The notes beneath the pieces are model-generated. The model did not search any database. It had not been told where the DNA came from and worked only from the letters and a program-made list of their open reading frames with translations. From an uncultured Rhodospirillaceae bacterium (GTDB taxonomy: Bacteria > Pseudomonadota > Alphaproteobacteria > Micavibrionales > UBA2020), in NCBI GenBank assembly GCA_964458415.1, contig CAYWIT010000015.1, positions 3,192-67,191 of the forward strand: a DNA stretch of 64,000 nucleotides, read 5' to 3'. The position numbers and the translations under genes are program-made. This document shows positions 23,117-49,620 of the stretch, in pieces; the first letter of the stretch is position 1; every line of letters begins with the position of its first letter.

Positions 23117-23551
23117 TTAAAAGGAACGAATGGCTGCGGCGTAAAGTTCGTCGGGATACCATGCGGCAGGGTATCCTGCGGGCGGCGCGCCGTTTTCCTG
23201 TCGGATAATGGCGCGACAGAGCAAGGTCATTATCGTCGGGTTTGATAAATCGAGTTTGTCGCGCCGTCGGACACCGAGAGCGCGACAGACGGTGTGGATA
23301 TAATGATCCGTCGCATTTTCATGCGGCGGCGCATAGCGGTTGATAATGGTCTCGATTGTATCAAGGCCGTATTTGGCATGATAGGTCATCAGCGTTTTCA
23401 TCAGGGCGCGTAGCCCGAAAATCGCCTCGGAAAATTCAACAAAGGCGGGATCCGTCTGAACAGGCTTTTGACCGAGCCAGCGAGTTTTTGTCAGGCGCAG
23501 GTTACCCGGATTGTGATTGCGGATCCCGCGTGGCAGGAAGAGAGCAGCCAT
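23117..23551 (-). CDS. Putative endolysin (RNxNPGN lysozyme-like family, often labelled 'structural protein P5')
   Basis: PRGIRNHNPGNL...F..F.....GLRA...L..Y...YGL.TI..II.RYAP..EN.T..YI; SD GAGGA. Confidence 0.7.
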   Translation of the reverse strand: MAALFLPRGIRNHNPGNLRLTKTRWLGQKPVQTDPAFVEFSEAIFGLRALMKTLMTYHAKYGLDTIETIINRYAPPHENATDHYIHTVCRALGVRRRDKLDLSNPTIMTLLCRAIIRQENGAPPAGYPAAWYPDELYAAAIRSF

Positions 23552-23561
23552 GATCATGTCC

Positions 23562-23792
23562 TCAATTGTGTTTTTGGCGCAGGAGTTGTTCAATTCGCAA
23601 AATGCCGTCATTTAAATGCTCCAGATGTTGTTCCAGCGCTGCCAGTCTTTCGGCAGTGTGTTCGTTATGACTGATCCATTTCTCGATATGTTCGACGCGC
23701 TTTGTGATGGACGCGGCCCACCATACGGTCGTGACAAGGTGGATGCTAAGCGTAATGGAAAGGGTGATAAGTCCGATAATGTCGCCGGGCAT
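23562..23792 (-). CDS. Small membrane protein with coiled-coil tail (lysis-cassette associated)
   Basis: N-terminal TM followed by heptad-rich C-term; overlaps or abuts neighbours. Confidence 0.6.
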   Translation of the reverse strand: MPGDIIGLITLSITLSIHLVTTVWWAASITKRVEHIEKWISHNEHTAERLAALEQHLEHLNDGILRIEQLLRQKHN

Positions 23793-23794
23793 GA

Positions 23795-25141: not shown

Positions 25142-25171
25142 TTCATCCTCCTATGCTGTGAAATATATCGG

Positions 25172-29266: not shown

Positions 29267-29287
29267 TTTTTTTGTCGTTAGAAAGAT

Positions 29288-29701
29288 TCAACGCAAGGGG
29301 CTGTAGCGATAGAAACCGCTGATCCGCCGGCTCCAGCGGTTTTCACGGTAACGTTCAATGACGCTGTTGATATTCCATTCGATATGCAGCATCTGGCCAT
29401 CGCCAAGGACAAGACCGACATGCATGGGCTGGCCATTCAGTCGCAGGAGAATCAGGTCGCCAAGAATTTCCGTGTCGGCAGGAATGGCTTGCCAGAGAAG
29501 GGCTTCCCTTGTGATCAGTGCGCCAATACGGGCGGTTTCCGTTGTGCGGTCATATTCATGGACATAAGAGGGCAGGGCTATGCCGAATTGCTCTGCCAAA
29601 ACCAGTCGTGTCAGACCCCAGCAATCAAGCCCGCTGCGGTCCCGGCCATGATCCTTGAAGGGCAGTCCGATATAATGTCCTGCCCAGAATGGAATGGGCA
29701 T
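29288..29701 (-). CDS. NlpC/P60 tail-associated peptidase (lambda gpK-like)
   Basis: YIGLPF...GRDRSGLDCWGL (catalytic Cys), HVGL, MLH. Confidence 0.9.
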   Translation of the reverse strand: MPIPFWAGHYIGLPFKDHGRDRSGLDCWGLTRLVLAEQFGIALPSYVHEYDRTTETARIGALITREALLWQAIPADTEILGDLILLRLNGQPMHVGLVLGDGQMLHIEWNINSVIERYRENRWSRRISGFYRYSPLR

Positions 29702-29723
29702 GGAGGCTGTGCTTTCTGGAATT

Positions 29724-29757
29724 GAAAAACCCGCCGGATTGCTCCAGACGGGTTTTC
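29724..29757 (-). terminator. Intrinsic terminator inside tail operon
   Basis: Minus strand: CCCGUCUGGA-GCAA-UCCGGCGGG then UUUUU; GNRA loop; flanking A/T tracts make it potentially bidirectional. Confidence 0.75.
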
Positions 29758-29782
29758 AGAAGAATAAAGGTAAAGAGTTGTG

Positions 29783-30067
29783 TCAGCTCATCATGCCGGT
29801 TGTTGGTTTGACGGTGCGGGATTGTGCCGGTTTCATTTCAGTGGCCGTGGAAGACAATTTGGCAACATAAGACTGGAATTTTTCCGGATTTGTTTTATCT
29901 GGATTAGCGGCGACATAGTCATTCATGCCCTTGATGGTGGCTTGCGCGTTTTGCGAGAGGCCGCCGCGGGTATCTTCTCCAATCAGGGAAAGGGATCCCA
30001 GCAGGTATTTCCCCGCCTCTGTATTGGTTGCACCGCTAACGAATTGCGATTTGATACCACCGTTCAT
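29783..30067 (-). CDS. Hypothetical 94-aa protein, moron-like insertion
   Basis: SD GGAGGG; AT-rich upstream gap (30121-30236); own terminator; no virion-protein features. Confidence 0.6.
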   Translation of the reverse strand: MNGGIKSQFVSGATNTEAGKYLLGSLSLIGEDTRGGLSQNAQATIKGMNDYVAANPDKTNPEKFQSYVAKLSSTATEMKPAQSRTVKPTTGMMS

Positions 30068-30236
30068 ATTTCAAGCCCTCCAGCCCGTCGTTTGCTTACG
30101 GGACAGTTTCAAACTGTTTGATTAACCGCCCGATTATTAGCTTATTTTTACTACTTTATCCCAGTTTTTTAAATTTTACCATAAGAAAAATAAACAAAAT
30201 ATGAATACTATGAAAAAAGTGTGTTACCTCAAGATG

Positions 30237-30710
30237 TTAGAATAACCCCGGGAACAGGCTGGGAGAGAAGCTTGCCGCTGGAAAAGGCTCTGTTGTGAAG
30301 TCTTCAAGCGTCAGATTCCCGGCAACAACTTGCGAATCGTAGGTGACGTCGGTCAGGCGAAAATCGGTAAATGCGGCTTCGACGGTTTCCGGTTCCGCGG
30401 CACGGACAATCTCGATCAGAACGGAAGGCGAGGACGTCAGGCTGCGGACCGCCGCCACAATCTGGCGATCAATATTGTCAATGACCAGATGGGCGCGTGG
30501 AGTCCTGTTATCGTCATCATCCGGCAGGCTCAGCTCAAAAGGAAAGGGAACAAAGCTGTTGCCGCGGCTGAGGGTGATGACGGCATCGCTCGTGACGCGG
30601 AGGGGCTCCGTCAGGGCTTCATGGGAAAGCGTGAGCAAAATCAGAAAGGCTTCGCTGGTCTCGGGCGCATAGAGCGCCTGCCGGGTGGAGAGAGTAATAT
30701 TGCGGCTCAT
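30237..30710 (-). CDS. DUF1833 family tail-tip protein (lambda gpL-like position)
   Basis: LILLTLSH...LRVTSD...F.PFPFELSLPD...LVIDNIDR...P.V.IEIV.A.EP.TVE. Confidence 0.8.
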   Translation of the reverse strand: MSRNITLSTRQALYAPETSEAFLILLTLSHEALTEPLRVTSDAVITLSRGNSFVPFPFELSLPDDDDNRTPRAHLVIDNIDRQIVAAVRSLTSSPSVLIEIVRAAEPETVEAAFTDFRLTDVTYDSQVVAGNLTLEDFTTEPFPAASFSPSLFPGLF

Positions 30711-31057
30711 GGCAAAATCTCCAGAGAGAGAAGAACGCGGTAATAGGAACCGTTGACGGCAGCATATTCCGGCGGATTGATGAACCTGCAGGACAGCGTG
30801 TCCCCCGTTCGCGGATGGCTAAAGTCAAAGGCCAGCGCTCCACCCGAGAGCGTCGTGGTATAAAAATTGTCAAGAATGCCTGCCTGCGCGCTGTTCAGAA
30901 GGTATCCGAAAGAAATTTTGCGGATGGCCGCCGTTGTCCGTTGCCGGACTTTTGCTGGCCCTTGCTCCATCTCGGTACGCAGAACGGTGGCAGGGAGGGT
31001 TTCATGAAAATTGTCGAGCAGCGGTGAAACGGGCAGCGTAGCAGGCCATTGTGGCAT
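30707..31057 (-). CDS. Distal tail protein-like (lambda gpM position)
   Basis: WPATLP...LRTEMEQGPAKVRQRTT...FY...L.GG.L.F.F.HP motif; directly follows tape measure. Confidence 0.7.
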   Translation of the reverse strand: MPQWPATLPVSPLLDNFHETLPATVLRTEMEQGPAKVRQRTTAAIRKISFGYLLNSAQAGILDNFYTTTLSGGALAFDFSHPRTGDTLSCRFINPPEYAAVNGSYYRVLLSLEILP

Positions 31058-31069
31058 AGACTATTCTCC

Positions 31070-31558
31070 TTATCGGCCGGTCAGATCTGGGGCCAGCCCA
31101 AAAAGGGAGCGCAAGACGCCGGAAGTCTGACGGCCGCGCAAAAGACTGTTGGCCACCATTTGGTCAATTGTAATCTCCAGATATTTTCTGTCATCCGAGG
31201 TAGAAAGTTCACGTGCCGTTACGCTTGTCTGGGTATTGTTATTGATGACCACAGTGATCCCGCCATCGGCACCTCCGGCAGTCCGGCCGTTTTGCGGCAG
31301 CGGAAGACCAAGGATAGCGCTGATCACATGAGGAAGTTCGTGCCGTGCAACGCCGTCCAGGGTGCCGGCGATAATATCCCGTTCGGGTTTTCGCGGGGCC
31401 GTTGATTGTGCGGCGGACAGGGATTGCGTCAGCGCTTTGAAAAGCGGATGAAGTCCGTTTTCGGCCAGACCGCGCAGCGATTCCTGCAGGGCGCCGGTTT
31501 TATCCTTCATGTCGTCGAGGGCCCGGGAAAGGCTATTCGTTTCTTCAGACAGCGGCAT
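31070..31558 (-). CDS. Very short tape-measure-like protein (162 aa)
   Basis: Position after tail chaperones; helical N-term; C-term VVINNNT...ITIDQMVA...FGL....GR typical of lambda-type TMP C-termini. Confidence 0.7.
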   Translation of the reverse strand: MPLSEETNSLSRALDDMKDKTGALQESLRGLAENGLHPLFKALTQSLSAAQSTAPRKPERDIIAGTLDGVARHELPHVISAILGLPLPQNGRTAGGADGGITVVINNNTQTSVTARELSTSDDRKYLEITIDQMVANSLLRGRQTSGVLRSLFGLAPDLTGR

Positions 31559-31773
31559 TATATATTTCCTTTATGTTCCGGATTGTCAGGAAAGCGGTGC
31601 ATCAGCGCTTGCAGCGTGGACAGCGGTGGCGGGCGGCCGCCGGATTCATTTTGCGTGTGGTAGCGGCGGAATCCGGCCAGCGCATCGCGGATATCCTCTA
31701 GGCTCGCGTCCTGCATGACGGTTTTTGGTGGCCAGCCCAGAACACCCATCATAAATCCGCGGAGGCCCCTCAA
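31558..31773 (-). CDS. Tail assembly chaperone 2 (RcGTA g10.1-like)
   Basis: GVLGWPP......ASLEDI..AL.G and LQALM.RFPD motifs. Confidence 0.7.
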   Translation of the reverse strand: MRGLRGFMMGVLGWPPKTVMQDASLEDIRDALAGFRRYHTQNESGGRPPPLSTLQALMHRFPDNPEHKGNI

Positions 31774-31796
31774 ATCGCTCTGGCGGCCCGGGCTGC

Positions 31797-32120
31797 TCAG
31801 CGCTCCCCCGGCGGGGAGACCCCTATTTCCTGCAAAGGGGAAATCAGCTGGACAAGGATTTGTGCCAAAAGAACGGGAGCGGTTACAGGCGGACGCCCCA
31901 AAAAAAATTCTGCCAGCGCCGTCTTTTCAATTTTTGCACCGGTCAGGAGATAGACGTCATGCAGGATATCGATAATTTCCGTCAGGGGCAGGGCCTGTTT
32001 GGCCAGCTGCTCTGCCAATAGAAAAACATTGCCGTTGTCCTGTTCCAGACGGGAGACAAGCGCCAATGTTGTGTGCAGCATGATCTGTCCGTCCGGCAGG
32101 GGAAGCTTCAGAGCGTTCAT
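31797..32120 (-). CDS. Tail assembly chaperone 1 (GTA gp10-like)
   Basis: L.LHTTLALVSRLEQ..G.VF.LAEQL pattern; between tail tube and TMP. Confidence 0.7.
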   Translation of the reverse strand: MNALKLPLPDGQIMLHTTLALVSRLEQDNGNVFLLAEQLAKQALPLTEIIDILHDVYLLTGAKIEKTALAEFFLGRPPVTAPVLLAQILVQLISPLQEIGVSPPGER

Positions 32121-32122
32121 GG

Positions 32123-32539
32123 TCAGGCTCCCGGTGTAAAGCTGCCGTTGCCGCTGCGCAGCAGCGTCAGGCTAAATGCTTCGAGACCCTCGGCGCTGCC
32201 GCTGCGGGCATAGGCGTCGATGACAAAGGCGGCTTGATAATTGTCCCCGTTGGGGAAGAAAAGAGCGTAGTTTTTGACGCTGCGGTCAAAAGCTGCGGCG
32301 CGCAGCAGCTCTTCGGCCGCGCTGTCCTTGAAAAGTCCGTCAAGGGCAATTCTCAGGCTTTGTACGCCGGCATCGGCAATGAAGTGCTGGATGCCGCCGC
32401 TGTCCATTGTTGTTCCGTCCGCAGGCGCGTTGTTCAGGCTGATCGAAGCCGTGCGGGCGGCGCCGATCGTCGTGAATATTTCCGGGGAACCGCCATCGCC
32501 GATTTTGAGCAGAAGGTCGCGGCCTTTTTGTAGGGACAT
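32123..32539 (-). CDS. Major tail tube protein, TP901-1 family (RcGTA g9-like)
   Basis: QKGRDLLLKIGDG...F.TIG..R...I...AG....I...GLFKD.AAE. Confidence 0.9.
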   Translation of the reverse strand: MSLQKGRDLLLKIGDGGSPEIFTTIGAARTASISLNNAPADGTTMDSGGIQHFIADAGVQSLRIALDGLFKDSAAEELLRAAAFDRSVKNYALFFPNGDNYQAAFVIDAYARSGSAEGLEAFSLTLLRSGNGSFTPGA

Positions 32540-32551
32540 GGATATACTCCT

Positions 32552-32965
32552 TTAAAGCGGGTCGAGGATGATGCGGAAACGCAGGATTCCGTGGCGGGTC
32601 GCGCCGTCACTTTCCAGCAAGGTTGCGGCCTCAAGGGATTGGCAAAGAACCAATTGATAAGCGTCTACGGGAAAATCCGCGTTTTCCAGAGCCGCCGCAA
32701 TGGCGGCCATTATATTCTGAATTTCGGCAAAACCATAATAACGGCTATAGCTATGGATATTAAGATGAATATCATGACTGGTTCCGTTCTGGGTCCTGAG
32801 CGCGGTTTGCGTCATTTCTCCCAAAGCGACATAAGGAAATTCCGTACCGGCAGGCACATGGTCAAGAATGCTGGCGGTGCCGGCGGCAAGAAGCGCCGTC
32901 AGCGGGGCGTTTGTAATCAGGCGGTCATAAACGGCGCTCTGAAGATTGGAAAGCGGGGCTGTCAT
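32552..32965 (-). CDS. Tail terminator, DUF3168 (RcGTA g8-like)
   Basis: LQSAVYDRL...D.VP....FPYV.LGE...HG.LRFRI. Confidence 0.85.
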   Translation of the reverse strand: MTAPLSNLQSAVYDRLITNAPLTALLAAGTASILDHVPAGTEFPYVALGEMTQTALRTQNGTSHDIHLNIHSYSRYYGFAEIQNIMAAIAAALENADFPVDAYQLVLCQSLEAATLLESDGATRHGILRFRIILDPL

Positions 32966-33038
32966 GATATCTGGCCTTTGAAAGTTTGGTAAAAACGCTT
33001 ATTTTTAAACAAGGTTGTTTTATTGTCCGGAGGGCTTC

Positions 33039-33740
33039 ATGGCAAAGCGCTACTTTTTTCAGGGTCTGCTTGTGGCGGCAGCCCTTTCGTTTTTTTCAGT
33101 CAATAGCGCCTGGGCCAGTTTTGAACAGGGCAAGGAGGCCTATGAACGCAAGAACTGGCAGCAGGCTATTTATTATCTTCGCCCGCTTGCCGAATCCGGC
33201 GATGCGCGCGCCATGATTGTTTTGGGCAACATGTATAGTCAGGGCCTTGGCGTCGCGCAGGATGACAAAGAGGCCTTTTCGCTTTACCTCAAAGCTGCAA
33301 GATTGAATCATCCGGATGCCATGGCTGCTGTTGGCGCGATGTACCAGCAGGGGCGTGGAACAGCCAAAAATCTGAAATACGCTCTGGGGTGGTATGGCCG
33401 CGCTGCACAAGCCGGGCAAAATGCCGCGGCCACTCTTTACGCCATGCTTCTTTACAGGGGAAACAGAAGCGATGACAAGGCGCAGGAATTAATCCCCGAT
33501 CATGTTGAATCCTATAAGTGGTTTACGATTGCCGCCCGTCAGACGCAGAATAAAAAAACGCAGGCTACATTGCGGCAGATGGCAAGCAAGGTGGCGGAGA
33601 ACCTCGCCCATGCGGATATTGCCAAAGCGGATAGTGCGGCGACGGTATGGAAGCCTGTTGCCACGGAAGCCCTCGGCCCTTTTCCAGAGGAGGCTGATTC
33701 TGCCGCAGAGGATTCTAAGGCGCCCTTACCTCCGCAATAA
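33039..33740 (+). CDS. Secreted Sel1-repeat protein, antisense within the virion operon
   Basis: SD GGAGG; signal peptide ending AWA; repeats A...LG.MY..G.GV.QD..EA...Y..AA..G. Confidence 0.85.
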   Translation: MAKRYFFQGLLVAAALSFFSVNSAWASFEQGKEAYERKNWQQAIYYLRPLAESGDARAMIVLGNMYSQGLGVAQDDKEAFSLYLKAARLNHPDAMAAVGAMYQQGRGTAKNLKYALGWYGRAAQAGQNAAATLYAMLLYRGNRSDDKAQELIPDHVESYKWFTIAARQTQNKKTQATLRQMASKVAENLAHADIAKADSAATVWKPVATEALGPFPEEADSAAEDSKAPLPPQ

Positions 33741-34041
33741 TAACCAGATATTCCAGACGGCTGTCGCGCGGAAGAAGCGAGATAATATTATAAATCCGTG
33801 TCCCGTCGGTCAGCCGCATGTCGGTCGTGATATCAACGCGGTGACGGATGATAATGCGATGTGTGGCGCGCGTGGCAATCTGCCGGAAGCGAAGTTCCTC
33901 CCGAAAAGTCAACGGTGCAATTTCAGCAAAGACTTCCGGATCAGCGGGAATGTCCTGCCAGCTCACGGCGAAGCCGCCGCTGCTGTCGGGCGTCCTGATT
34001 TCGCGCTGGACGGTCAGGCGTTCGCGGAGCCGGCCGATCAT
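33715..34041 (-). CDS. Head closure / head-tail adaptor (SPP1 gp16-like, RcGTA g7-like)
   Basis: MIGRLRERLTVQ....TPD..GGF...W...THRIIIRHR.D....MRL. Confidence 0.9.
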   Translation of the reverse strand: MIGRLRERLTVQREIRTPDSSGGFAVSWQDIPADPEVFAEIAPLTFREELRFRQIATRATHRIIIRHRVDITTDMRLTDGTRIYNIISLLPRDSRLEYLVIIAEVRAP

Positions 34042-34676
34042 GACAGCCCCATTCTTTTAAAGGGTTGAAACATGTTCTGTGCGCCGGAAGTGGCGAGGGC
34101 CGTTGCTGCTTCATCGCCGCGGTGCGTGTAAAGATGGGCCGCCAGCTGGCGGATTCCTTGACGCAGGGCAGCCGGAATTTTTTCCGGTGTCGCGCCATAT
34201 CCGGCCCTGAACTGGATCTCGATGCCGCTGGCATTTCTGCCCGGCGTGGGCGGGCTTATGCCGGATTTCAAGACAATCCGCCCCGGGATTCCGGCATTGT
34301 CGGCAAAATAGGATGCGGCGGGATATTCCGTTGCGGTATTGTCTTCCGCGTAAATATTGATGCGGATCACGGAGACAAGTGGCGGGTGAGGCAGCACAAG
34401 AACCGAGGGGGCTGAAAGCCGCGCGCCTTCGCGCAGCCCGTCCCACCAAGATTCGCAGGCTTTGCCGGGCCAGCAGTCTAGATAAAGGCTATAGCTGCGG
34501 GTAATCAGCGCGCAGCCCGTAAATTGCTCGCAACTCTGCCGCGCGGCAGCGATCAAACCGGCCAGCAGGTCGTTATCGGTATCATGGTTCAGGCGCAGGT
34601 GATTTTTTAAATCGTCCAGCGTCACCGGCTCGGCGCCGGGAGCAAGGGTTTCCACAAGGCGGCAGGGGGCGGTCAT
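34038..34676 (-). CDS. Head-tail connector (gp6-like, RcGTA g6-like)
   Basis: EPVTLDDLKNHLRL...LI.AAR...E..TG.ALITR...IEI.F.AGYG...P.ALRQ.I..L.AH.Y..RG. Confidence 0.9.
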   Translation of the reverse strand: MTAPCRLVETLAPGAEPVTLDDLKNHLRLNHDTDNDLLAGLIAAARQSCEQFTGCALITRSYSLYLDCWPGKACESWWDGLREGARLSAPSVLVLPHPPLVSVIRINIYAEDNTATEYPAASYFADNAGIPGRIVLKSGISPPTPGRNASGIEIQFRAGYGATPEKIPAALRQGIRQLAAHLYTHRGDEAATALATSGAQNMFQPFKRMGLS

Positions 34677-34699
34677 GATACTTCTCTTGAAACAGGTTT

Positions 34700-34742
34700 A
34701 AAAAAAGAGGGTGAGAGCGGGCATGTACTGGCCCCCACCCTC
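34700..34742 (-). terminator. Intrinsic terminator after head-decoration gene
   Basis: GAGGGTG...CACCCTC arms with inner GGGC/GCCC; A7 tract on plus strand gives a U-tract on the minus strand. Confidence 0.65.
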
Positions 34743-34765
34743 AGGCGCAGGTGGAGGTCGTCAAA

Positions 34766-35215
34766 TCAGGCATTGTCAACGGGGGTTTCATGAGCCATGC
34801 CTTTGAGCGCCAGCATCGCAATCGGGCCGCCCGTTGCAAGGGAAATGGGGGTTGCGGTCACCTTGACAAAACGCTTGCCGCCACGATATCCGATAACATG
34901 ACGCTTGTTTTCCTTGCCTGAGGCATCAATGCTGGCAAACACACCGGAAGACAGGCCTGTAAAGTTCAACACGTCTTCATCGCTGCAAGCGGCATAGGCG
35001 CCAGGAGCGCCGGAGCCGTCATCGTCGGCCTGTTCGATTTTGAGATCGATACGTACTGATGCGCTCAGGGTATCGGCAATATTGCCGACGGCGACGACGA
35101 TGGCCAGATCCTCGAATCCCTGCAGGTCAATATCGCCGGAGTTCAGGGCGGCGGCCTGAATCGTCTGGGGGTTGAGCGGCTGGGCAATCACGACATTATT
35201 CACGATGTTATGCAT
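34766..35215 (-). CDS. Capsid-associated decoration/spike-base-like protein
   Basis: Follows the major capsid; IDLQGFE...IGYRGGKRFVKV motif common in genes downstream of alphaproteobacterial HK97 capsids. Confidence 0.65.
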   Translation of the reverse strand: MHNIVNNVVIAQPLNPQTIQAAALNSGDIDLQGFEDLAIVVAVGNIADTLSASVRIDLKIEQADDDGSGAPGAYAACSDEDVLNFTGLSSGVFASIDASGKENKRHVIGYRGGKRFVKVTATPISLATGGPIAMLALKGMAHETPVDNA

Positions 35216-35240
35216 GAAAAATCCTTTCATTTATGCGTTA

Positions 35241-35355
35241 AAAAGGCTGCGGGGGGATACCTTTTCGCGGTTTTTTAAACCGGAGGCGGGAGGGGCGCCC
35301 GCATGGAAAAAGCATCCCCCGCAGCGGCGCGCCCGGTTTGGGGAGACGGCGCGCC
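35241..35355 (-). terminator. Branched RNA structure / terminator after major capsid gene
   Basis: Long closing stem GCTGCGGGGG (35246) / CCCCCGCAGC (35325) enclosing two hairpins, U-tract on minus strand, plus a GGCGCGCC...GGCGCGCC hairpin. Confidence 0.55.
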
Positions 35356-35368
35356 AATCAGTTTAGGT

Positions 35369-36673
35369 TCAGGCAACGGCGAATTTCATCAGCTTGATAG
35401 CTTCAAAATTCACGACGTCGCCGCCGACGCGTTTTGTCGTGTAGAACTTGACATACGGCTTGGCGGTGAAACTGTCGCGCAGGATGCGGGTTCCCTGACG
35501 ATCAACGATCTGATATCCGGCATTGAAATCGCCGAAAGCGATCGAAAGGCTGTTGGCTGCAATCGCCGGCATGTCCTCCGCTTCCATGACGTTGAACCCG
35601 AGCAGCGTGCCGCCCTGTTTCATCTGGAAGTCCGGCTGCCAGAGATAGTTTCCGGCCGTATCTTTCAGCTTGCGGACTTCGGCGAGGGTGGTGCGCTTCA
35701 TCATAAAGACGGCATTTTCGCGATAGGCGGATTTAAGGCCGAAGACAAGGTTGATCAGGGCATCACCCGGGTCTGTTGCGGCAAAGGCGCCGGCGGCACC
35801 GGAGGGGAGCTGCTCGATCACGGAAAATCCTGCAGCGCTGGGTGTTCCCGCGGCATAAGTCAGGAAACCGCGGGGCTTGCGTACGCCGTTTCCGCTGACA
35901 AAGGCCTCGTTCTCCATGCGGGTGAATTTTTCCGCGATTTTTCCGGCCAGCCATTCTTCGACGTTAAACAGGGCATCGTCGAGAAGTTTTTGTGTGGCGC
36001 GGGGCTCGGCATATTGTTCGTGAACGGGAATGCGGTATTCGCCGATTTTCGGTGCGGCGGTTTCCGTCCGGGTTTCCGTTTCCCCGACCCATCCGGAGGA
36101 GGCTTCATTGAGATCGTTAAAGCCCTCCAGAGCGTCCGTGCCAATAGTCAGGACATTGGCGACCTGCCGCAGCGGGGATGTTTCGCGCACCAGCGCGGCG
36201 ATACGTCCGGACATGTCCGGCGTGACGGCATAACCGCCATCGGGGTCCGAGCCGACGGCAAGAGCCTTGACCTCGTCGATAGCCGAACCTGCATTGTTCT
36301 TGCGCAGGTAATTGCTGAAAGAGGATTTATACTGGCGATAGGCATCAATGCCGAGCTCGCTCTGGCTATGGCCCTTGCGTTCCAGCAGGAAGGCCTCGGC
36401 TTCTTTCCATTCATCGCCGCCCATGCCGCGCGGCGAACGGCCCAGAGCGGTTTCAATCTGGTCAACACGGCGTTTGGCGGTGTCAGCGGCGTCAATCGCG
36501 CGGCTGATTTCGCTGTTCAGGCGGTTCACCTTCATTTCCGTCAGGGGATCGGCGGCGCCGCGGCGCTCGATTTCGCGCAAACGCTGGTCGTTGGCGTCCT
36601 TGAATGATTCAAAAGCGCGGCCAAGGTCATAAACCGTGGAACGTACGTCCGGATTACGGGTGTCATTTGTCAT
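35369..36673 (-). CDS. Major capsid protein, HK97 family (RcGTA g5-like)
   Basis: N-terminal coiled-coil scaffold; DGGYAV...SPLRQVA; PRATQKLLDDALFNVEEWL; AFVSGNG..KPRGFL; KPYVKFYTTKRVGG. Confidence 0.96.
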   Translation of the reverse strand: MTNDTRNPDVRSTVYDLGRAFESFKDANDQRLREIERRGAADPLTEMKVNRLNSEISRAIDAADTAKRRVDQIETALGRSPRGMGGDEWKEAEAFLLERKGHSQSELGIDAYRQYKSSFSNYLRKNNAGSAIDEVKALAVGSDPDGGYAVTPDMSGRIAALVRETSPLRQVANVLTIGTDALEGFNDLNEASSGWVGETETRTETAAPKIGEYRIPVHEQYAEPRATQKLLDDALFNVEEWLAGKIAEKFTRMENEAFVSGNGVRKPRGFLTYAAGTPSAAGFSVIEQLPSGAAGAFAATDPGDALINLVFGLKSAYRENAVFMMKRTTLAEVRKLKDTAGNYLWQPDFQMKQGGTLLGFNVMEAEDMPAIAANSLSIAFGDFNAGYQIVDRQGTRILRDSFTAKPYVKFYTTKRVGGDVVNFEAIKLMKFAVA

Positions 36674-36699
36674 GATGTGTCCTTTTGTAAGGGGGTGAT

Positions 36700-37389
36700 T
36701 TAATTTCCGGCCAGTCGCCGGAGCGTCTCCGTCAGCGCCGTAATGGCGTGAAGGTCGTCATCGTCTCCGCTTGCAGCCGCTTCCCGCGGCAGGAGGGATT
36801 TGTAGCCAAAGGAGAGAAGCCCTTTGGCTTGTTTGCGGCTCAGGCCTGCTTCCCGCAGGAAGGCCTCAAATTCACGTTCGGTGGGAACCCCTCCGGCGGC
36901 AAATGCCGATTTGACGCGCAGGATTCGTGCCGCGTCATTGGCCGGAAAGGTGACCATGGAAACCTCCAGCAGCGCGATATCCGTCAGGATACGCACACCG
37001 GATTTTTCGTCGAAATGGGATTCTCTTGTCCTGTAACCGATCGAGAGGCCGGTGACGACATTTTCGCGCAAAAGCTTCCAGGCCTCTTTTGCCCGCGGGA
37101 TATCATTGATAAAAAGCTCCCCCTTGACAAAAAGGCCGTGATTGTCCTCATGCATGTCCCGCCATGCTCCCAGCGGCTCCCGTATGTCATGCTGCCAGAG
37201 CAGCGGGGGCAATCTGTGCTCCGTCCTGAATTCCTGCAGGCTCTTGCTGAAAGCGCCTGGCGCAATCCTGTCGTGGACGGCATCGGTCATGTCAAAGACC
37301 GAGGCATATCCTTCAAAGACACCGGTTTCGGCAATGAATTTCAGTTCAAGCGGACTGTCAAAATGCGGATAAGAAAACAGGGATGTCAT
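36700..37389 (-). CDS. HK97-family prohead protease (RcGTA g4-like)
   Basis: FEGYASVF..D...D.I.PGAF, LLWQHD, GLSIGY, LLEVSMVTFPAN. Confidence 0.95.
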   Translation of the reverse strand: MTSLFSYPHFDSPLELKFIAETGVFEGYASVFDMTDAVHDRIAPGAFSKSLQEFRTEHRLPPLLWQHDIREPLGAWRDMHEDNHGLFVKGELFINDIPRAKEAWKLLRENVVTGLSIGYRTRESHFDEKSGVRILTDIALLEVSMVTFPANDAARILRVKSAFAAGGVPTEREFEAFLREAGLSRKQAKGLLSFGYKSLLPREAAASGDDDDLHAITALTETLRRLAGN

Positions 37390-37413
37390 ACAAGGCGCCT
37401 TTTCAGTGGAGTC

Positions 37414-37758
37414 TCAGGAAATAACCGGATCAATTTGAATCGGCCCTTCGGCAACGATCAGTCCGTCGCCGTTTTTCGTGATTTTAAGCTGGGCGAAAAA
37501 AACGCCGCGCAGAGGGCTGCCTTCCGCGGCAAGCTCCGCTGTATTGAAAGTGACAGAGGCGATATTGCCGGAAAGCGTTATGCCTGCGGTCTGCGTTTTT
37601 GTCACAAGTGCGGGTTCATCGGCATGGCGGGCAATTTTGTAAGTCGCTTCCGCGCCGTCAACGGGAACGGCGAGGCCGTTTTGATCGGTAATGGTAAAGA
37701 CAATATTGACCGGCTCCCCGCTTTTGGCGGAAATCAGGTTGTGTTTGATGCTGTGCAT
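37414..37758 (-). CDS. Ig-like / BppU-like virion accessory protein
   Basis: SD GAGG; SGE...I.FTITD..G..VP..GA.ATY.I pattern; beta-rich. Confidence 0.55.
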   Translation of the reverse strand: MHSIKHNLISAKSGEPVNIVFTITDQNGLAVPVDGAEATYKIARHADEPALVTKTQTAGITLSGNIASVTFNTAELAAEGSPLRGVFFAQLKITKNGDGLIVAEGPIQIDPVIS

Positions 37759-37766
37759 AAAGCCTC

Positions 37767-37985
37767 TCAGAACGAAATGGTAACGGGAATATTCTCGTCT
37801 TTGGAATAAAGCGCCTTTGCCGTTGTTGTGGCGGCAAAACACGCGGTATTGGCAGCGGTCTTGTCGAAAACTGCTTTGAGCGCAAAAACGCGATGGTGCA
37901 GGTAAAACGGCAGATCTGCCAGAGGGGAGATAGCAGTTCCTTCACTGCCGCCGACCGGCATGGTGCCAATGGCAAATCCTGGCAT
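37767..37985 (-). CDS. Small hypothetical virion-associated protein
   Basis: N-term MPGFAIGTMPVG resembles the G-F-x-P starts of small phage structural proteins; SD AAAGGA; tight packing. Confidence 0.5.
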   Translation of the reverse strand: MPGFAIGTMPVGGSEGTAISPLADLPFYLHHRVFALKAVFDKTAANTACFAATTTAKALYSKDENIPVTISF

Positions 37986-38009
37986 GGTTGATCCTTTAGG
38001 CCTGATGTT

Positions 38010-39074
38010 TTATGCGATCCAGGTATATGAACTGCCGGTTGTTCCGCCGCCACCGCCTGTGGGAAAGTCTATGGCGGAGATCAGGAGCCCGACCGCGGCG
38101 ATCCTTGTTGTGTCGTCAGTCCAGTCGCCTGTTCCCGTGGGGTCCTTGGCGCTGGTATAAAAACCGCGCACCCCATGCGTGTCTTGCGCCCGTATTGCGG
38201 CGCTGGCGTATTCACGGTAATAAAACGACAGGTTTGTAGCGGATGAAGGCTCGACGGCGATTCGATAATCGGTATTCGCCGAAAGCGCGACTTCTGCCGT
38301 AAAAAGCCGGTAGTTGAGCGTTCCTGTCGCGGTAACTGGCGTGTTGTCATCGTTTGTTACCGCAGCCAGCACCGTTACCCCGTCGGAATCGTACAGCTTT
38401 ATGACGGCAGGTCCGTCAAAGTCAGCAACGACCCATATTCCACTGGCTTTTGCGGCGTAGGGAATGTTGATAACGTTTCCGATAACGTCTGGCGTCGAGG
38501 TGTTGTTATAGGTTGCAAGGTAATTTGTGCTTCCTACGCCATGAATTCCCTCCATCGGGTAATATCCGTTGGTGGAAAAGTAGAGCGCGGCGACAATGCC
38601 GGCAGCTGTGAAAGAGGCCCAGGACGTTGTATATGCGGACAATGTGGGAAAGCCGAGCTTGTCAAATTCGGAACCGGTGGAATAATGTATTTGTCCGGCA
38701 AAAGTTCCGCTGCCTCTGGTGATGACGACCGCAAATATATCTCCAGCCGTCAATGCCGCACCAGCGGTCAGCGTTACTTCAAACCATGTATTATCGTCGG
38801 TGGCGTTGATTGTTTGCGTTACATTGGTATTGGTTCCCCAAAGCGTGCCTGTCGGAAATCCGCTGCTGTCAACGGTCTCGATTCTGATATCAAGATCGCC
38901 GCTTGTCGTCACTGTTTTGGTAAAAAAGCCGACTTTGGTCAGGGTGTCTGTAACGGGGGCATTAAATATGAAAGCTGTCTTTTCACCATCGGCGTCAATT
39001 GTGGTATTTCCCAGTGACGGAATGCCCCCCATGGCTTTGGGAATTTCCAACCCGTAAATGGTCTGATACGTCAT
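38010..39074 (-). CDS. Beta-rich fibre/spike-like virion protein (354 aa)
   Basis: T/G/A/S-rich with two similar halves (TLTAGAALTAGDIFAVVI; EVALSANTDYRIAV); ends GGGGGTTGSSYTWIA; visibly lower GC. Confidence 0.6.
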   Translation of the reverse strand: MTYQTIYGLEIPKAMGGIPSLGNTTIDADGEKTAFIFNAPVTDTLTKVGFFTKTVTTSGDLDIRIETVDSSGFPTGTLWGTNTNVTQTINATDDNTWFEVTLTAGAALTAGDIFAVVITRGSGTFAGQIHYSTGSEFDKLGFPTLSAYTTSWASFTAAGIVAALYFSTNGYYPMEGIHGVGSTNYLATYNNTSTPDVIGNVINIPYAAKASGIWVVADFDGPAVIKLYDSDGVTVLAAVTNDDNTPVTATGTLNYRLFTAEVALSANTDYRIAVEPSSATNLSFYYREYASAAIRAQDTHGVRGFYTSAKDPTGTGDWTDDTTRIAAVGLLISAIDFPTGGGGGTTGSSYTWIA

Positions 39075-39173
39075 GCTGTTGCCTCGATTTCAAATTTGAA
39101 GGGCCGGTCATTGCCGCCAACGGCTATAAAATTCCGGCGGCGCATTCTGCCGAAAATTTCAGGAGGGTATAGA

Positions 39174-40373
39174 TCATGTTCGCGTTCCTTTCACAATGAC
39201 TGAAACTTTCGTCACGGTTGTCGCGCTATCGACGTTAAAGGCGATGACATCACCGGCAGAGACGGCTGTCGTCCATGTGGAAAGGGCATTATCCTGATTT
39301 TTCTGCGCGGAGGAAAGCGTCGGCTTTTCTGTGCCGGCAATCGTGTCGGCCGCCGTCGGCGGAAAGTTGGCGTAGCTATCTTTCCAGACATCGATAATAA
39401 TTGAGCCGGGTTGATCGGCGAGGATATCCCATCCCGTGACAGTCATCGCGTAGGGAACTGTAATATAGCCTTTCACGCCTGTCGTAATCGCGGTGCCGCC
39501 GCCATCGATCGTGATGCCGAACGCCGCAGCCAGAACATTGCCTGAAGCCGAAATTGTCGGGTTTCCCGAGACGCCATCTCCGTCCGAAACTGCAATCCCC
39601 GCGCCAGCAGTAATTGTGCGGCCGGTAAAGGTATCGGTGGCGATCTGTGTCAGCAATCCGCTTGCACTATGGGCGGCCAGCGCAGTCAGGGTAGCGTCGG
39701 CGGGCTGGTACACGCCGTTGTGGTTATGCGCCGCAGCGGCATAGCGGGCATCGGCATCCGCCCGCGTCGGGATATCGCTTGCGTTCGCAACGCCCATCAG
39801 GCGTTTGGCGAAGATATCCGCCGCTGTTTGCTCTATCAGGCCAGCTGTTGCGTCAAGCCCTGCCAGAGAGGTCAGGGTTGTATCCGCGGCCTGCTTGGCG
39901 GCAAGCAGGGTATCTGTTTGCGGGGCGGTGTAGTAATTGACGGCATTTTGTGCCGCCATGGTGCCGGCATCGCTGATCTGAGCCAAAAGATGCGTGTGGC
40001 CCAGAGAGGCTTTGCCATCAAGGGCGGCCTGCAGTCCGGAGACGCTGGGAATACTGAGGGGCAAAATAGCCTGATATTGCGTAGGGATATCGTTTATCGC
40101 CTCTTTTTCACCGGCAGAAAAATTGACAGCGGTGCCGCTGTTGCTCGAGGCTATGATAGTATCACGGGCAAGGGTCGTCGCATCCTGCAAGTGCCCGGTT
40201 CCGATCTCCCATTCAGACGCCGTTGTATGGCTGATGAAATAGAAGAACATATCGCTGCCGCCGGTACCAAAGGCCTGATAAAAGGATTGCCGGCCTGCCA
40301 GCGCGGATAGGGTGATATTCCCCGCTCCTTCCGAGGTTGTGCGTTGATGCACAAGGTTTGATATCAGTGCCAT
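39174..40373 (-). CDS. Modular fibre-like virion protein (399 aa)
   Basis: N-term MALISNLVHQRTT..G.G.ITL...EWEIG.G...TL.RDTI..SSN.G.AVNFSAG.K (widespread phage fibre N-domain); internal repeat; C-term GITIDGGG.AITTG.KGY domain. Confidence 0.7.
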   Translation of the reverse strand: MALISNLVHQRTTSEGAGNITLSALAGRQSFYQAFGTGGSDMFFYFISHTTASEWEIGTGHLQDATTLARDTIIASSNSGTAVNFSAGEKEAINDIPTQYQAILPLSIPSVSGLQAALDGKASLGHTHLLAQISDAGTMAAQNAVNYYTAPQTDTLLAAKQAADTTLTSLAGLDATAGLIEQTAADIFAKRLMGVANASDIPTRADADARYAAAAHNHNGVYQPADATLTALAAHSASGLLTQIATDTFTGRTITAGAGIAVSDGDGVSGNPTISASGNVLAAAFGITIDGGGTAITTGVKGYITVPYAMTVTGWDILADQPGSIIIDVWKDSYANFPPTAADTIAGTEKPTLSSAQKNQDNALSTWTTAVSAGDVIAFNVDSATTVTKVSVIVKGTRT

Positions 40374-40420: not shown

Positions 40421-41629
40421 CTAGCCGAGGTTGTCGCCGCCCTTCAGGGGGGGCAGGCCGAATTTTTCTCTTTTTTCGTTAACCGTCATAAATCCGGCGC
40501 TTGATATTTTTTCCCAGTAACGATCCCGCCGCGGCGCCAGCGCCTCGATTGCGTCCAGATCAAAATCAAGAACAAGATTTTCACCGAATTTTGGCGCCAG
40601 CCAGCCGTTGAATTCGTCACGGATATGGCCCAGCAGGGGCAGCACGGCATCATCGAAGAGCGCCAGACGGGCTTGTTCAAAGTTGGCAAAGGTCAGCGAG
40701 CCGTCAATGCCGATAAGTTGGGGCGGAATGTGAAAGGCCAGCGCGATTTCGCGTGCCGAGCCGTCCTTGCCGGCGAGCCAGTCCATTTCCTTTGGCGAGA
40801 GGGACATTTCCCGCCAGTCCAGCCCGCCTTCAAGAACAAGCGGGCGGCCGGCATTGGCGGAGCCTGAAAAATACTGTTCGAGTTCCGCCTTCAGGGTTTG
40901 CCGTTGTGCTTCTGTCAGGCTATCCGGAGAATCCGGATGGGCGGGGTTAAAGACCAGTGCGCCGGAGGGGCGTCCGCTCATCTGCAAAAGCGCGGCGTTC
41001 CATTTCGCGGCATCATTATGCTGGTCGATACTAATGGCCGCGGCCTCCAGCGGGCTCATCCCGTACCAGTCGTCCAGCGGATGGAAAGCTTTTAAATGCA
41101 GGATTTCAGCCTGTCCGGTCAGCGGGCTGGCCGGAAATTCAACGGTTCTTCCGCCAGCCTGATAACGGTAGGAAGCTGGCAAACCGTGATTGCCGGGCAC
41201 AATACGCATCCGGTCCGGGCGCAAGGCCCAGAGTTCAAGCGGCGGGCCGCCGCCGGGGCTGACAGCTTCGATATAGCTGTTTCCGGAGATCAGGTAAAAT
41301 CCAGCCAGCGCTTCAAAGAACTCGGCCCGTGCTTGCAGTGGATTGGGCCGTGCCAGCAAGGAAAGCAGGGGGTGGTCTGTTAGTCTTGTTTTTGTTTCTC
41401 CGCCGGTTTCAAAAAGCCGCCAGGGAACAGAGGCCAGATTCTGGCTGATCAGCTTGATACAGCGATAGGCGATGACGTTTTTCTGGAAGCCTTCCTCGGC
41501 AAGCCGGTCGTACTGGCGCGGCGTGAAGCGGGCCTGCCGCGTACCCAGTTGTACCAGTAAAGGGCCGGTCCGGCTGGCTTTGGCTTCGCGCCGTAAGAAA
41601 CGGTCAAAAGGATTGAAGGCGCGCGTCAT
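40421..41629 (-). CDS. Portal protein, HK97 family (RcGTA g3-like)
   Basis: EEGFQKNVIAYRCI; HPLL.LL.RPNP; LRPDRM; LHLKAFHPLDDWYGMSPL; RPSGAL; GIDGSLTFANFEQAR. Confidence 0.96.
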   Translation of the reverse strand: MTRAFNPFDRFLRREAKASRTGPLLVQLGTRQARFTPRQYDRLAEEGFQKNVIAYRCIKLISQNLASVPWRLFETGGETKTRLTDHPLLSLLARPNPLQARAEFFEALAGFYLISGNSYIEAVSPGGGPPLELWALRPDRMRIVPGNHGLPASYRYQAGGRTVEFPASPLTGQAEILHLKAFHPLDDWYGMSPLEAAAISIDQHNDAAKWNAALLQMSGRPSGALVFNPAHPDSPDSLTEAQRQTLKAELEQYFSGSANAGRPLVLEGGLDWREMSLSPKEMDWLAGKDGSAREIALAFHIPPQLIGIDGSLTFANFEQARLALFDDAVLPLLGHIRDEFNGWLAPKFGENLVLDFDLDAIEALAPRRDRYWEKISSAGFMTVNEKREKFGLPPLKGGDNLG

Positions 41630-41648: not shown

Positions 41649-43085
41649 TCAGCCTCCCCAGACGCGGGGGCCGTTGTGGGGTCGTTGCGACAGCAGCAGA
41701 TCCGTTATCGCCCAGACCCGTGCATCGACGCGGTCCGGGCTTTTGCCGTTGATAGCCGGATTAAAGCGGCACAGCTGGTCTTCCAGCTGCGGGAAATGCC
41801 CTGCATGGTGAATACGTCCATCGGCGTCGAGGGCGGCCACCGGTTCCGCGCGTATAATTTTCCCGCGGCTGGCATGAACGGCTTTGTAGGAAACAGCGGC
41901 GTCAAAGCTGCGCAAGGTATGCGCGACAAGATCGCCGCCCTGATTGACTTCCGCGACAACGCGGTCCGCCTGATAAATGTGGTAGGCCTCAATGATGCGG
42001 CGCGCCCATTCCGCCGGGGCATAGGTGCCGCTCAGATCGGCCAGAATATAGGCATGGTCGTCCGTGCCGAGACCTGCCACGATAATTCCCGTTTCGTCGC
42101 TTTTCTCATGGCTGGTGACAGCGGGATCCACCGCGACAATGATGCGGCGGAATTCCGGCAGGGCGTGGGAAGGGCGGCGGTTGCGGTCAAGCATGTCACG
42201 GGTCCAGAGCGCGCCGGGGGCAGCGGAATCGAAAGCTTCTTCCACCGTTGCGGGGTATTCGCGGCGAAAGGTCCAGATATTGCCAAGTTCGGATATTTTA
42301 ATCTGCCGCCAGAACATCTGGGCCGGATCAAGACCGAATGTTTCCGCATAGCTGCGCTCTTCCGGGGTCAGCTGGAAATCCGCGGGGGGCATCCTGCGGT
42401 ATTCGTCCTGCCAGAACCAGGGCACGAAGATAAAGCGAAAGCTGGAAGCGTTATGCAGCGCGTCCTGCGCCAGCGTGTAGAAAAATCCCGCGTCCCCCGC
42501 AGAGGTGCTCTCCAGAATGATCTCAGTGTCCGGCAGATCCGGCACGGCTTGCAGAATGCCGGAAATATGTTCCTCGGCGTGGGGCCAGAAGGCGACTTCC
42601 GAGCCGTGAAAATACTGCAAGGTGGCGGATCTGCCGATGCCCTGCGCGCGGGCGGTGCCGACGGAATAGCCACTGTCTAGCCGGTCAAAAACAAGCTCCC
42701 GGCTGTTGGCAAGAGAGGTATGCGGCCGCACGGGAACGGGGCAGTGGTCATGGAACCGTCGTGCGATCTGGTAGATATTGCGCGAAGCTTCCTCCAGATG
42801 CGTGAGGATAAAAGCCCGCACGCCCTTGCGGTGGCTGACTTTCCAGTAAAAGCGGGCCTCGACATAGGTCGAGCAGCCCTGCTGCCGTCCTTTCAGGATA
42901 ATGGCACGGATGCGGCCCTCCTTCTGCAGCTGTTCCTCAAGGGCCCGGTGAATGAATTGCTGGGCCGTATTGAGGGCAAGCGGCAGGATCTGGCCATTTT
43001 TACTGCGGATCTTCAGGCATTTTTCGGCGTAGTGGACAAAGTCGTTTTTTAGCCGCTGGCGGAGCCGGCGTTCCCGGAGGTTCAT
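41649..43085 (-). CDS. Terminase large subunit (apparently chimeric ATPase + GTA-type nuclease)
   Basis: Walker A region LKGRQQGCSTY; Walker B FHGSEVAFW; EST coupling motif; nuclease IVAVDPAV...DETGII...AEVNQGG...RAEPVA...SPDRVDA. Confidence 0.93.
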   Translation of the reverse strand: MNLRERRLRQRLKNDFVHYAEKCLKIRSKNGQILPLALNTAQQFIHRALEEQLQKEGRIRAIILKGRQQGCSTYVEARFYWKVSHRKGVRAFILTHLEEASRNIYQIARRFHDHCPVPVRPHTSLANSRELVFDRLDSGYSVGTARAQGIGRSATLQYFHGSEVAFWPHAEEHISGILQAVPDLPDTEIILESTSAGDAGFFYTLAQDALHNASSFRFIFVPWFWQDEYRRMPPADFQLTPEERSYAETFGLDPAQMFWRQIKISELGNIWTFRREYPATVEEAFDSAAPGALWTRDMLDRNRRPSHALPEFRRIIVAVDPAVTSHEKSDETGIIVAGLGTDDHAYILADLSGTYAPAEWARRIIEAYHIYQADRVVAEVNQGGDLVAHTLRSFDAAVSYKAVHASRGKIIRAEPVAALDADGRIHHAGHFPQLEDQLCRFNPAINGKSPDRVDARVWAITDLLLSQRPHNGPRVWGG

Positions 43086-43098
43086 GGGTGAAATCCTG

Positions 43099-43389
43099 TT
43101 ATTCCAGCAGGCCCAGCGCTTCTTCATGCGGCGCGCCATCGATTTCGGGCGCGGTGCGGCGGGCGGCTTCCGAAATATCCGGCAGTGTTTTTTTGAGCAG
43201 GGCCAGCGCCGCGCTGACCTGTGTCGAGGTCATCTCTTTCTTGCCGAGAACATGTTGTTCCAGCGCTTCGATCAGGGCATGCACATTGATTTTGTCACGC
43301 AGGTTTTTTTCGGGGGTCTTTTTTTTCGGGGATTTTTTCAGGCGTCGCGTCGCCGGACGCCTTGTTTTGGAGTCTTTTTTTGCGGGCAT
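43099..43389 (-). CDS. Putative terminase small subunit
   Basis: Immediately upstream of terL; basic N-term; L..HVLG..EMT.TQV.AA..LLKKTLPD motif. Confidence 0.6.
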   Translation of the reverse strand: MPAKKDSKTRRPATRRLKKSPKKKTPEKNLRDKINVHALIEALEQHVLGKKEMTSTQVSAALALLKKTLPDISEAARRTAPEIDGAPHEEALGLLE

Positions 43390-46946: not shown

Positions 46947-47037
46947 GTGCTGCCTTTTCAAAAAATATCGCGGATTTTTTGCCAGAGGCAAAAGTTTACC
47001 GGCTGTATTTTTAATGCGCTGTAATCAGAAGGTTATT

Positions 47038-49618: not shown

Positions 49619-49620
49619 GT

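Follow-up and report, generated by a model that had tools for sequence, protein, structure and literature searches.

The large terminase (TerL) gene described here lies in a 64,000-nucleotide (nt) stretch of DNA, hereafter the window, from an uncultured Rhodospirillaceae bacterium of the Micavibrionales (assembly GCA_964458415.1, contig CAYWIT010000015.1, positions 3,192 to 67,191 of the forward strand). Judged from its sequence, this TerL probably joins an ATPase and a nuclease of different ancestry. The explanation that we consider best, and rather likely, is that it belongs to a large and old TerL family whose domains have different origins, that one early crossover brought them together, and that the gene is now inherited within a conserved phage-derived cluster. 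A preliminary description of the same DNA had proposed a chimera in which the gene for the small terminase subunit (terS) and the ATPase domain were replaced together by recombination, leaving the nuclease of a gene transfer agent (GTA) of the Rhodobacter capsulatus type (RcGTA). The chimera reading holds for the deep history of the family, but it does not describe something that happened in this genome or within a GTA of the RcGTA type.

TerL is encoded by the second gene of a co-linear series of minus-strand head-tail genes that covers approximately 23.1-43.5 kb of the window. It is preceded by a terS-like gene and followed by a portal gene (Table 1), as in Caudoviricetes large terminases. 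The open reading frame (ORF) extends to an ATG at 43139 (41649-43139, minus strand, 496 amino acids, aa). Nevertheless, the gene is assigned to 41649-43085, because its homologs are about 478 aa long (mostly 476-482), an AGGA lies 9 nt ahead of the ATG at 43085 and this ATG is just past the terS stop codon at 43099-43101. The end coordinate first given, 43389, corresponds to the likely start codon (ATG, protein MPAKKD...) of the terS-like gene upstream, which encodes 96 aa. All motifs quoted in the preliminary description are found in the 478-aa product. On the ATPase side these are LKGRQQGCSTY (aa 64-74), GTARAQGIGRSATLQYFHGSEVAFW, IILEST, FVPWF and EYPATVEEAF (aa 276-285); on the nuclease side they are PGALWTRDML, RIIVAVDPAV (aa 314-323), DETGII, AEVNQGG, RAEPVAAL and SPDRVDA. 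The Walker A motif is deviant, with a Cys where the canonical Lys is expected and K65 upstream of it. In Pfam, the nuclease half matches PF17289 (7.9e-18), and the scan gave no Terminase_6N (PF03237) in this TerL, whereas the TerL of the Erythrobacter locus L066 has such a match (L numbers denote the compared loci).

Outside its own family, the two halves of TerL have different nearest relatives. In what follows, A denotes an ATPase with a KGRQQGxST Walker A motif, B a GRGxGKT ATPase, b the nuclease found here and a1 another nuclease class, so that the present protein is an A + b hybrid (AB). When the query was divided at aa 288 and compared by BLAST with 185,579 species genomes, both halves were matched in 11 Micavibrio-like or unclassified alphaproteobacterial loci; here, the halves are equally diverged (N half 60-68% and C half 60-67% identity). 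The N half alone was matched at 41-59% in about 40 loci, including Methylobacterium, Bosea, Endozoicomonas and Lysobacter, where the C half never reached an E value better than 2. Reciprocally, the C half alone was matched at 45-54% in eight loci and two phages, and the sole N-half match among these 10 B-type proteins was a stretch of 50 residues in phage phiA005 (E=0.28). Matches of either parent family to the opposite half of TerL all have E>0.1. Cultured phages are divided in the same way. The best matches to the N part cover aa 8-322/348 at 35-46% and come from Pseudoalteromonas phage H6/1, Vibrio phages and Escherichia coli phage PTXU04, while the last 177 aa are matched at 45-53% by phages of Roseobacter (CRP-6), Brevundimonas, Synechococcus and Streptomyces (mu1/6) and by Pan1; no record in this search spanned at least 80% of TerL. 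For instance, an unrelated nuclease follows KGRQQGAST and ...EYPMNAAEAF in H6/1 TerL, and the TerLs of CRP-6 and phiA005 have GRGWGKT or GRGFGKT followed by a nuclease resembling that of the window.

The change from one set of relatives to the other is abrupt. In 20-residue sliding windows, identity to A-type TerLs drops from 45-60% to 10-25% across aa 281-300, and identity to GRGxGKT-type TerLs climbs from 0-5% to 55-65% over the same residues, a switch that is far above chance. BLAST matches of A-only loci stop at aa 285-288, and those of proteins with a B ATPase and a b nuclease (B-b) start at aa 289-291. Immediately after the junction, GALWTRDMLD is identical in viral contigs L159 and L181. 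The junction had originally been placed at around nt 42230, and this is indeed the codon boundary between aa 285 and 286, right after EYPATVEEAF, at the domain linker. In profile comparisons (hhalign), A ATPases can barely be aligned with B ATPases (E=0.29), and a1 nucleases align with b nucleases at E=7e-5 and 20% identity.

The fusion is old. A protein search with TerL scored 7824 homologs, of which the best 120 are all near full length, at 60-99% identity. Assemblies from NCBI, JGI, ENA and Logan contain the same architecture in no fewer than 120 independent clusters formed at 90% identity, and the hybrid is also found in 11 GTDB species genomes and 15 IMG/VR contigs. The 11 genome loci and approximately 10 IMG/VR loci keep terS, both TerL halves, portal, protease, capsid, tail and upstream genes in order, with identities among sister loci of 37-64% for terS, 62-70% for the portal and 79-83% for the capsid. 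Because near-full-length homologs and co-linear clusters occur throughout the family, the fusion predates the divergence of the Micavibrio-like genomes, and the TerL of this genome is simply inherited as an intact and ordinary family member. The hybrid is thus no sign of anything unusual done by this genome, and a replacement of terS and ATPase within it is contradicted by the shared architecture of those 120 best homologs and by the 11 co-linear loci. The junction itself is shared by these genome loci and by IMG/VR contigs. A common set of nearest homologs for both halves, including a full-length phage-like protein, was found inside the family and not outside it; this had been named beforehand as an observation against the chimera, and it counts against it in part. 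The phage-like case is L088, a 57.9-kb contig with replication genes and a classical TerS, whose TerL has the same domain combination at about 52% identity. By comparison, L086 has the same hybrid TerL with far more divergent head genes (portal 39%, capsid 36%), which argues that the hybrid gene moves as a unit.

TerL has the ATPase, the RNase H-like nuclease and the gene position of a Caudoviricetes large terminase. An AlphaFold2 model (predicted local distance difference test score, pLDDT, 86) shows the standard two-domain TerL fold, with best Protein Data Bank (PDB) fold matches to the TerLs of T4 (gp17), PhiV-1, HK97, Sf6 and D6E. The modelled ATPase domain deviates from that of T4 gp17 by a root-mean-square distance of 3.2-3.3 Å over about 280 columns, and the nuclease domain matches the G20c nuclease and RuvC. 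Searching the PDB with the TerL sequence or with profiles gave nothing meaningful, and this placement came from the fold search alone. The ATPase motifs were assigned roles by position against T4 gp17, whose motif roles we take to apply here. D320, E379 and D451 of the nuclease are invariant in the 46 aligned homologs, and together with D454 they are likely its catalytic residues. Since all ATPase motif residues and these nuclease acidic residues are invariant, the enzyme is predicted to be probably active.

This bears on the question of whether the cluster is a decaying prophage remnant whose TerL no longer packages, which we consider rather doubtful. A remnant would fit the lack of integrase, lysis or replication genes nearby and of GTA-specific residues in TerL; in fact, no integrase, replication, lysogeny or recognisable lysis gene was found in or beside the cluster, and no att-like repeat of the tRNA-Leu end was detected, the detected repeats being ankyrin repeats. 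Against decay, all reading frames are intact across the 20-kb cluster, gene order and neighbours are kept where TerLs are only 60-68% identical and capsids 79-83%, and every ATPase and nuclease motif residue is invariant in the 46 homologs. The gene order is terS-like, TerL, portal, 399-aa fibre-like protein, 354-aa orphan, protease, capsid, connectors, head- and tail-completion proteins, tube, tape measure, DUF1833, NlpC/P60 and TipJ-like protein, followed by two unknown genes, and it is conserved in Micavibrio-like loci L005-L014, L020 and L077-L083. The gene content suggests a conserved, domesticated or defective phage element of about 20 kb. A GTA function, in which particles would package random host DNA and be unable to pass on their own cluster, is possible.

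A second alternative starts from an RcGTA-type GTA cluster in which phage DNA replaced terS and the 5′ (ATPase) part of terL in place, everything from the nuclease onward being native. This is unlikely, although part of the evidence fits it. The discordant terS and ATPase block forms one uninterrupted stretch at the cluster's left end, and the genes to its right are homologous to RcGTA-like clusters (nuclease 48-54%, portal 38-45%, protease 38-47%, capsid 38-44%, tube 32-34%). In RcGTA-like TerLs (g2/rcc01683, in Rhodobacterales and Sphingomonadales; Erythrobacter L065-L071 as proxy), the nuclease is homologous over its full length, at 50-54% over about 180 aa, and shares GALWTR, VAVDP, AExNQGG, RAEPVAAL, HFPQLEDQ and SPDR.DA with the window; HK97-type portal, S78 protease, capsid and tail tube are homologous at 32-44%. 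L066, for example, is an RcGTA-like cluster with DUF2460, Gp84_N plus BR0599, NlpC/P60 and a TerL with Terminase_6N plus 6C, to which the window compares at 53% for the nuclease, 38% for the portal, 38% for the protease, 42% for the capsid and 33% for the tube. The ATPase differs, with KGRQQGCST instead of GRG(F/A)GKT. As had been stated at the outset, Walker A motifs of the GGRGAGKT type do occur in GTA TerLs, namely in two loci with the GTA signature (L177 and L180).

By contrast, the details of the nuclease point away from a GTA. Pro282 and Cys292 (RcGTA numbering) mark GTA TerLs, and viral TerLs have Ala and Thr (Esterman et al. 2021, PMC7947584, where RcGTA-type TerLs are group 3). The nuclease of the window has the viral states, Ala322 and Thr332 (VDPAVTSHEKSDETG), and the same DPA...ETG is present in all AB and viral b-type proteins, while every locus with RcGTA-like head genes has Pro/Cys; among the sequences where the motif was found, DPP...CG is restricted to such loci. 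The closest nucleases outside the family (57-60%) are those of the IMG/VR viral contigs L157-L164 and L181, which share no other gene with the cluster. Together with CRP-6 (nuclease 50%), these contigs have GRGFGKT TerLs with a B-type ATPase; all share the DPA...DETG signature with the window, the IMG/VR contigs also have the identical GALWTRDMLD after the junction, and the only other gene in common with the cluster is a fibre-like gene in CRP-6. Because of its Ala/Thr states and viral closest relatives, the C half is assigned by sequence to the viral side of the RcGTA-related nuclease family. Thus, of the description as an RcGTA-type nuclease half, the family stands (50-54% to Erythrobacter C halves) and the GTA type does not.

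Further evidence against in-place replacement comes from the rest of the cluster. The tail tip consists of DUF1833, NlpC/P60 and the TipJ family, not of DUF2460 plus DUF2163/BR0599, and it shares only PF13550 and NlpC/P60 with L066. The RcGTA hallmark tail genes g12 (DUF2460), g13 (DUF2163 / Phage_BR0599) and a g15-type megatron were not found in the window cluster, and its terS also differs from those of RcGTA-like clusters. The tail module is lambda/TipJ-like and not RcGTA-like. In addition, the pairing of the hybrid with divergent head genes in L086 is that of a gene that moves as a unit, and the RcGTA homologs of Micavibrio are reported to form small clusters only (PMC5721377); the literature searches likewise turned up no account of a GTA in Micavibrio. 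As separate observations, wherever the motif was found, Pro/Cys distinguishes L065-L071, L167, L177, L179 and L180, which have head genes of the RcGTA-like kind, from viral b-type TerLs with no exceptions, and this serves as an independent check of the published two-residue marker. Also, one 883-aa ORF at 16209-18860 of L066 joins NCTSP_N, a TIM-barrel tail-sheath-like domain and DUF2460 (g12); the join is either a genuine fusion or a product of faulty ORF calling.

The hinge at EYPxxxEAF looks like a repeated exchange point, because A-type ATPases, which form one cluster in BLAST, occur with four types of nuclease that BLAST does not relate to one another. For nuclease typing, TerLs were split by BLAST anchoring, as an earlier regular-expression split at the hinge had missed many sequences. 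KGRQQGxST TerLs that occur with P22/SU10-type portals, both in phages (Pseudoalteromonas phage vB_PspP-H6/1 gp03, Vibrio phage 1.182.O, Escherichia phage PTXU04) and in prophages of Methylobacterium, Bosea, Lysobacter and Endozoicomonas, are 41-59% identical to the present TerL over aa 1-285, with all ATPase motifs and the terminal EYPxxxxEAF. They differ in carrying three further nuclease types without BLAST match to the one found here, and in having large P22- or SU10-type portals rather than HK97 ones. H6/1, for instance, is 49% identical in the ATPase and gives no match in the nuclease, so that the present protein is not an H6/1-like podophage TerL in both halves. Further A + b proteins are found in L087-L089 (N half 58%, C half 43%, DUF4055 portal) and L090-L091 (N half 50%, C half 40%). 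L088, one of the former, encodes a methyltransferase, a DnaC-like helicase loader, its classical TerS and a different capsid.

A third alternative, namely unequal rates of change of the two domains in one vertical TerL lineage without recombination, is very improbable. Nuclease domains are often said to evolve faster, and a rate difference was left as an alternative for Xanthomonas phage PBR31. In this single phage, the TerL ATPase and nuclease have different nearest relatives, and partial horizontal transfer of the terminase was suggested (Evseev et al. 2024, PMC10975493). Its Sf6-like ATPase and other partner families differ from those of the window, and that study included no family-wide or junction-level analysis. 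Apart from this remark, the literature gave no systematic account of TerL domain exchange, of this hybrid family or of its junction. Here, an account by rates fails because the discordance is reciprocal, each group lacking the other half: A-only proteins match the N half at 41-59% but give no match to the C half, and for B-b proteins the C half matches at 45-60% and the N half does not match. Moreover, the switch occurs within about five residues, the two ATPase profiles are essentially unalignable and one ATPase family carries four nuclease types. Finally, a recent chimera or assembly artefact of this genome or contig, which would have the sharpness of the junction and nothing else in its favour, is practically dismissed by the recurrence of the architecture in the assembly clusters, GTDB genomes and IMG/VR contigs counted above and by the equal divergence of the halves.

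The small gene upstream of TerL presumably acts as TerS, given its position and conservation. Its product has a Lys/Arg-rich N-terminus, a conserved helix, HVLGxxEMTxTQVxAALxLLKKTLPD, and a C-terminal HE(D/E)AL..LE motif, and contains HVLGKKEMTSTQVSAALALLKKTLPD. It gave no match in Pfam, PHROG or NCBIfam, and a database search returned about 150 relatives, all unnamed. In a search with a hidden Markov model (HMM), homologs were immediately upstream of TerL in 17 of the 26 AB loci and in none of the 36 B-b loci. In other phage contexts, members of the family lie immediately upstream of A-type TerLs (L075, L130, L183 and L185), including TerLs of the P22/SU10-portal group; in L183 and L185, two of three distant relatives that were compared, the A-type TerL has an H6/1-like nuclease, and in L183 a P22-type portal follows. 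The family tends to travel with the A-type ATPase, although not exclusively. The association of the small gene with the N-terminal family that had been supposed is thus borne out beside A-type TerLs, with the exception of a third TerL type in L184. In RcGTA, TerS (gp1) is reported to bind the ATPase domain of TerL and not the nuclease (PMC6854486), which provides a reason for the co-transfer of terS and ATPase.

Several observations weigh against a single early crossover as set out above. The HMM search found a terS homolog adjacent to TerL in only 2 of the 120 A-only loci, which came from pattern scans, with a third copy about 2 kb upstream (L100). At 4001-5702 of L184, a terS relative precedes a third TerL type, with the Walker A motif GGARGGGKT, and then a P22-type portal; therefore, the small subunit is not tied to one ATPase family. 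In neighbor-joining (NJ) trees of the two halves, the core AB clade has 70-76% bootstrap in both, yet monophyly of all A + b proteins has 0-2.5% support, so several fusions or later re-swaps are possible. Deep nodes are below 50% in both trees, so that any direction, place or number of events read from them would be tentative. The comparisons with RcGTA TerL used RcGTA-like clusters of Erythrobacter, which have the g12/g13/g14 hallmark domains, as a proxy for the RcGTA sequence itself. The rationale that the nuclease stays with the head is also weak, because the b-type spans three portal families. The related idea that nuclease type tracks portal family, with portal docking explaining the swap, was rejected, as the b-type occurs with PF04860, PF06381 and DUF4055 portals.

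Taking these points into account, the old hybrid family likely originated by a single crossover within terL, at the hinge that follows the final helix of the ATPase (EYPxxxEAF | GALW), probably in a phage and well before the Micavibrio-like divergence. Through this event, a b-type RNase H-like nuclease would have been joined to terS and an A-type ATPase (KGRQQGxST) of the kind that otherwise occurs with P22/SU10-type portals. In the resulting system, the small basic TerS would recruit TerL via the ATPase domain, the ATPase would translocate DNA with the motor seated on the HK97-type portal, and the nuclease, with its acidic residues intact, would make the initiating and the headful-type terminating cuts. 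The swap may have been tolerated as the break falls between two self-contained folds and keeps TerS-ATPase contacts on one side. Nuclease-to-head contacts may remain on the other side, and the portal comparison gives this no support.

TerL is a standard marker for phage phylogeny and for the prediction of packaging strategy, and is usually handled as one gene. With a hybrid family this large, whole-gene TerL trees can mislead and domain-split analysis is needed; calls of GTA-like terminases from the C-terminal Pfam domain alone can mislead as well. The family is also a natural experiment on the contacts that must stay together, in which TerS appears to stay with the ATPase. The conserved phage-derived cluster of Micavibrio-like bacteria is a candidate for GTA activity. 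More speculatively, these predatory Alphaproteobacteria might have, beside an ankyrin array, a GTA-like particle system that was domesticated separately and is passed on vertically, and the hinge might be a general exchange point that re-pairs DNA-recognition with head modules. Were this tentative idea true, the terminase would pair a podophage-type TerS and ATPase with an RcGTA-family nuclease in a clade thought to lack large RcGTA-type clusters.

Table 1. Features of TerL, the head-tail cluster and its surroundings (coordinates are positions in the window)
Feature	Position	Strand	Remarks
Large terminase TerL	41649-43085	-	478 aa plus stop; PF17289 Terminase_6C at aa 318-461 and PHROG TerL families
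ATPase module, A-type	42231..43085	-	aa 1-285, ends EYPATVEEAF; 41-59% identity to A-type TerLs
Walker A, K65-G-R-Q-Q-G-C-S-T73	42867-42893	-	deviant; invariant in 46 family members
Walker B / catalytic Glu, H160-G-S-E163	42597-42617	-	range covers aa 157-163; invariant in 46 family members
Coupling motif, E192-S-T194	42504-42512	-	invariant in 46 family members
Junction DSAAP	42216..42230	-	aa 286-290, between last ATPase helix and nuclease; abrupt similarity switch
Nuclease module, b-type, RNase H-like	41652..42215	-	aa 291-478; 45-60% identity to GRGxGKT TerL nucleases
Candidate catalytic residue D320	42126-42128	-	nuclease module
Candidate catalytic residue E379	41949-41951	-	nuclease module
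Candidate catalytic residue D451	41733-41735	-	nuclease module
Candidate catalytic residue D454	41724-41726	-	nuclease module
terS-like small gene	43099..43389	-	96 aa from MPAKKD; longer ORF to 43461
HK97-type portal	40421..41629	-	PF04860 1.9e-84; TIGR01537 portal_HK97
Rest of head-tail cluster	23117..40373	-	Pfam, PHROG, NCBIfam matches
Fibre-like protein, 399 aa	39174-40373	-	weak PTR repeat match; C-terminus matches PHROG virion structural families
354-aa protein between portal and protease	38010-39074	-	no homolog in any compared locus, no family match
S78 protease	36700-37389	-
HK97 capsid	35369-36673	-
Tail tube	32123-32539	-
Candidate tape measure, 162 aa	31070-31558	-	only candidate; 46-66% in several sister loci
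TipJ-like protein, 1364 aa	25172-29266	-	TipJ family, FNIII-A_GpJ domain
tRNA-Leu(CAG)	20984-21068	+	near distal cluster end
DNA_pol_A_exo1 3'-5' exonuclease	21112-21723	+	near distal cluster end
Ankyrin-repeat genes (at least 11 in all)	44652-55454	-
Ankyrin-repeat genes	58091-59521	+
Ankyrin-repeat genes	61342-62136	-
Ankyrin-repeat genes	21965-22570	+
Upstream protein	43556-44083	-	hydrophobic N-terminal leader by eye; Ala/Pro-rich low complexity
Upstream protein	44135-44650	-	hydrophobic N-terminal leader by eye; Ala/Pro-rich low complexity
FHA-domain protein and trypsin-like protease	55506-57988	-	between ankyrin genes, beyond array

Within the cluster, a tape measure of 162 aa would imply a very short tail, as in RcGTA. 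Phage CRP-6, L170 and some of the sister loci have homologs of the fibre-like gene, which is placed between portal and protease. On one flank, the cluster is bordered by the ankyrin-repeat genes, eight of which form a same-strand array directly upstream, and on the opposite flank by the tRNA-Leu, the exonuclease and housekeeping genes. Ankyrin genes are also located upstream of terS/TerL in Micavibrio-like loci L005-L013, L020 and L077-L083, and the association is thus conserved. The two leader-bearing upstream proteins are conserved with the cluster in many sister loci and may belong to the element.

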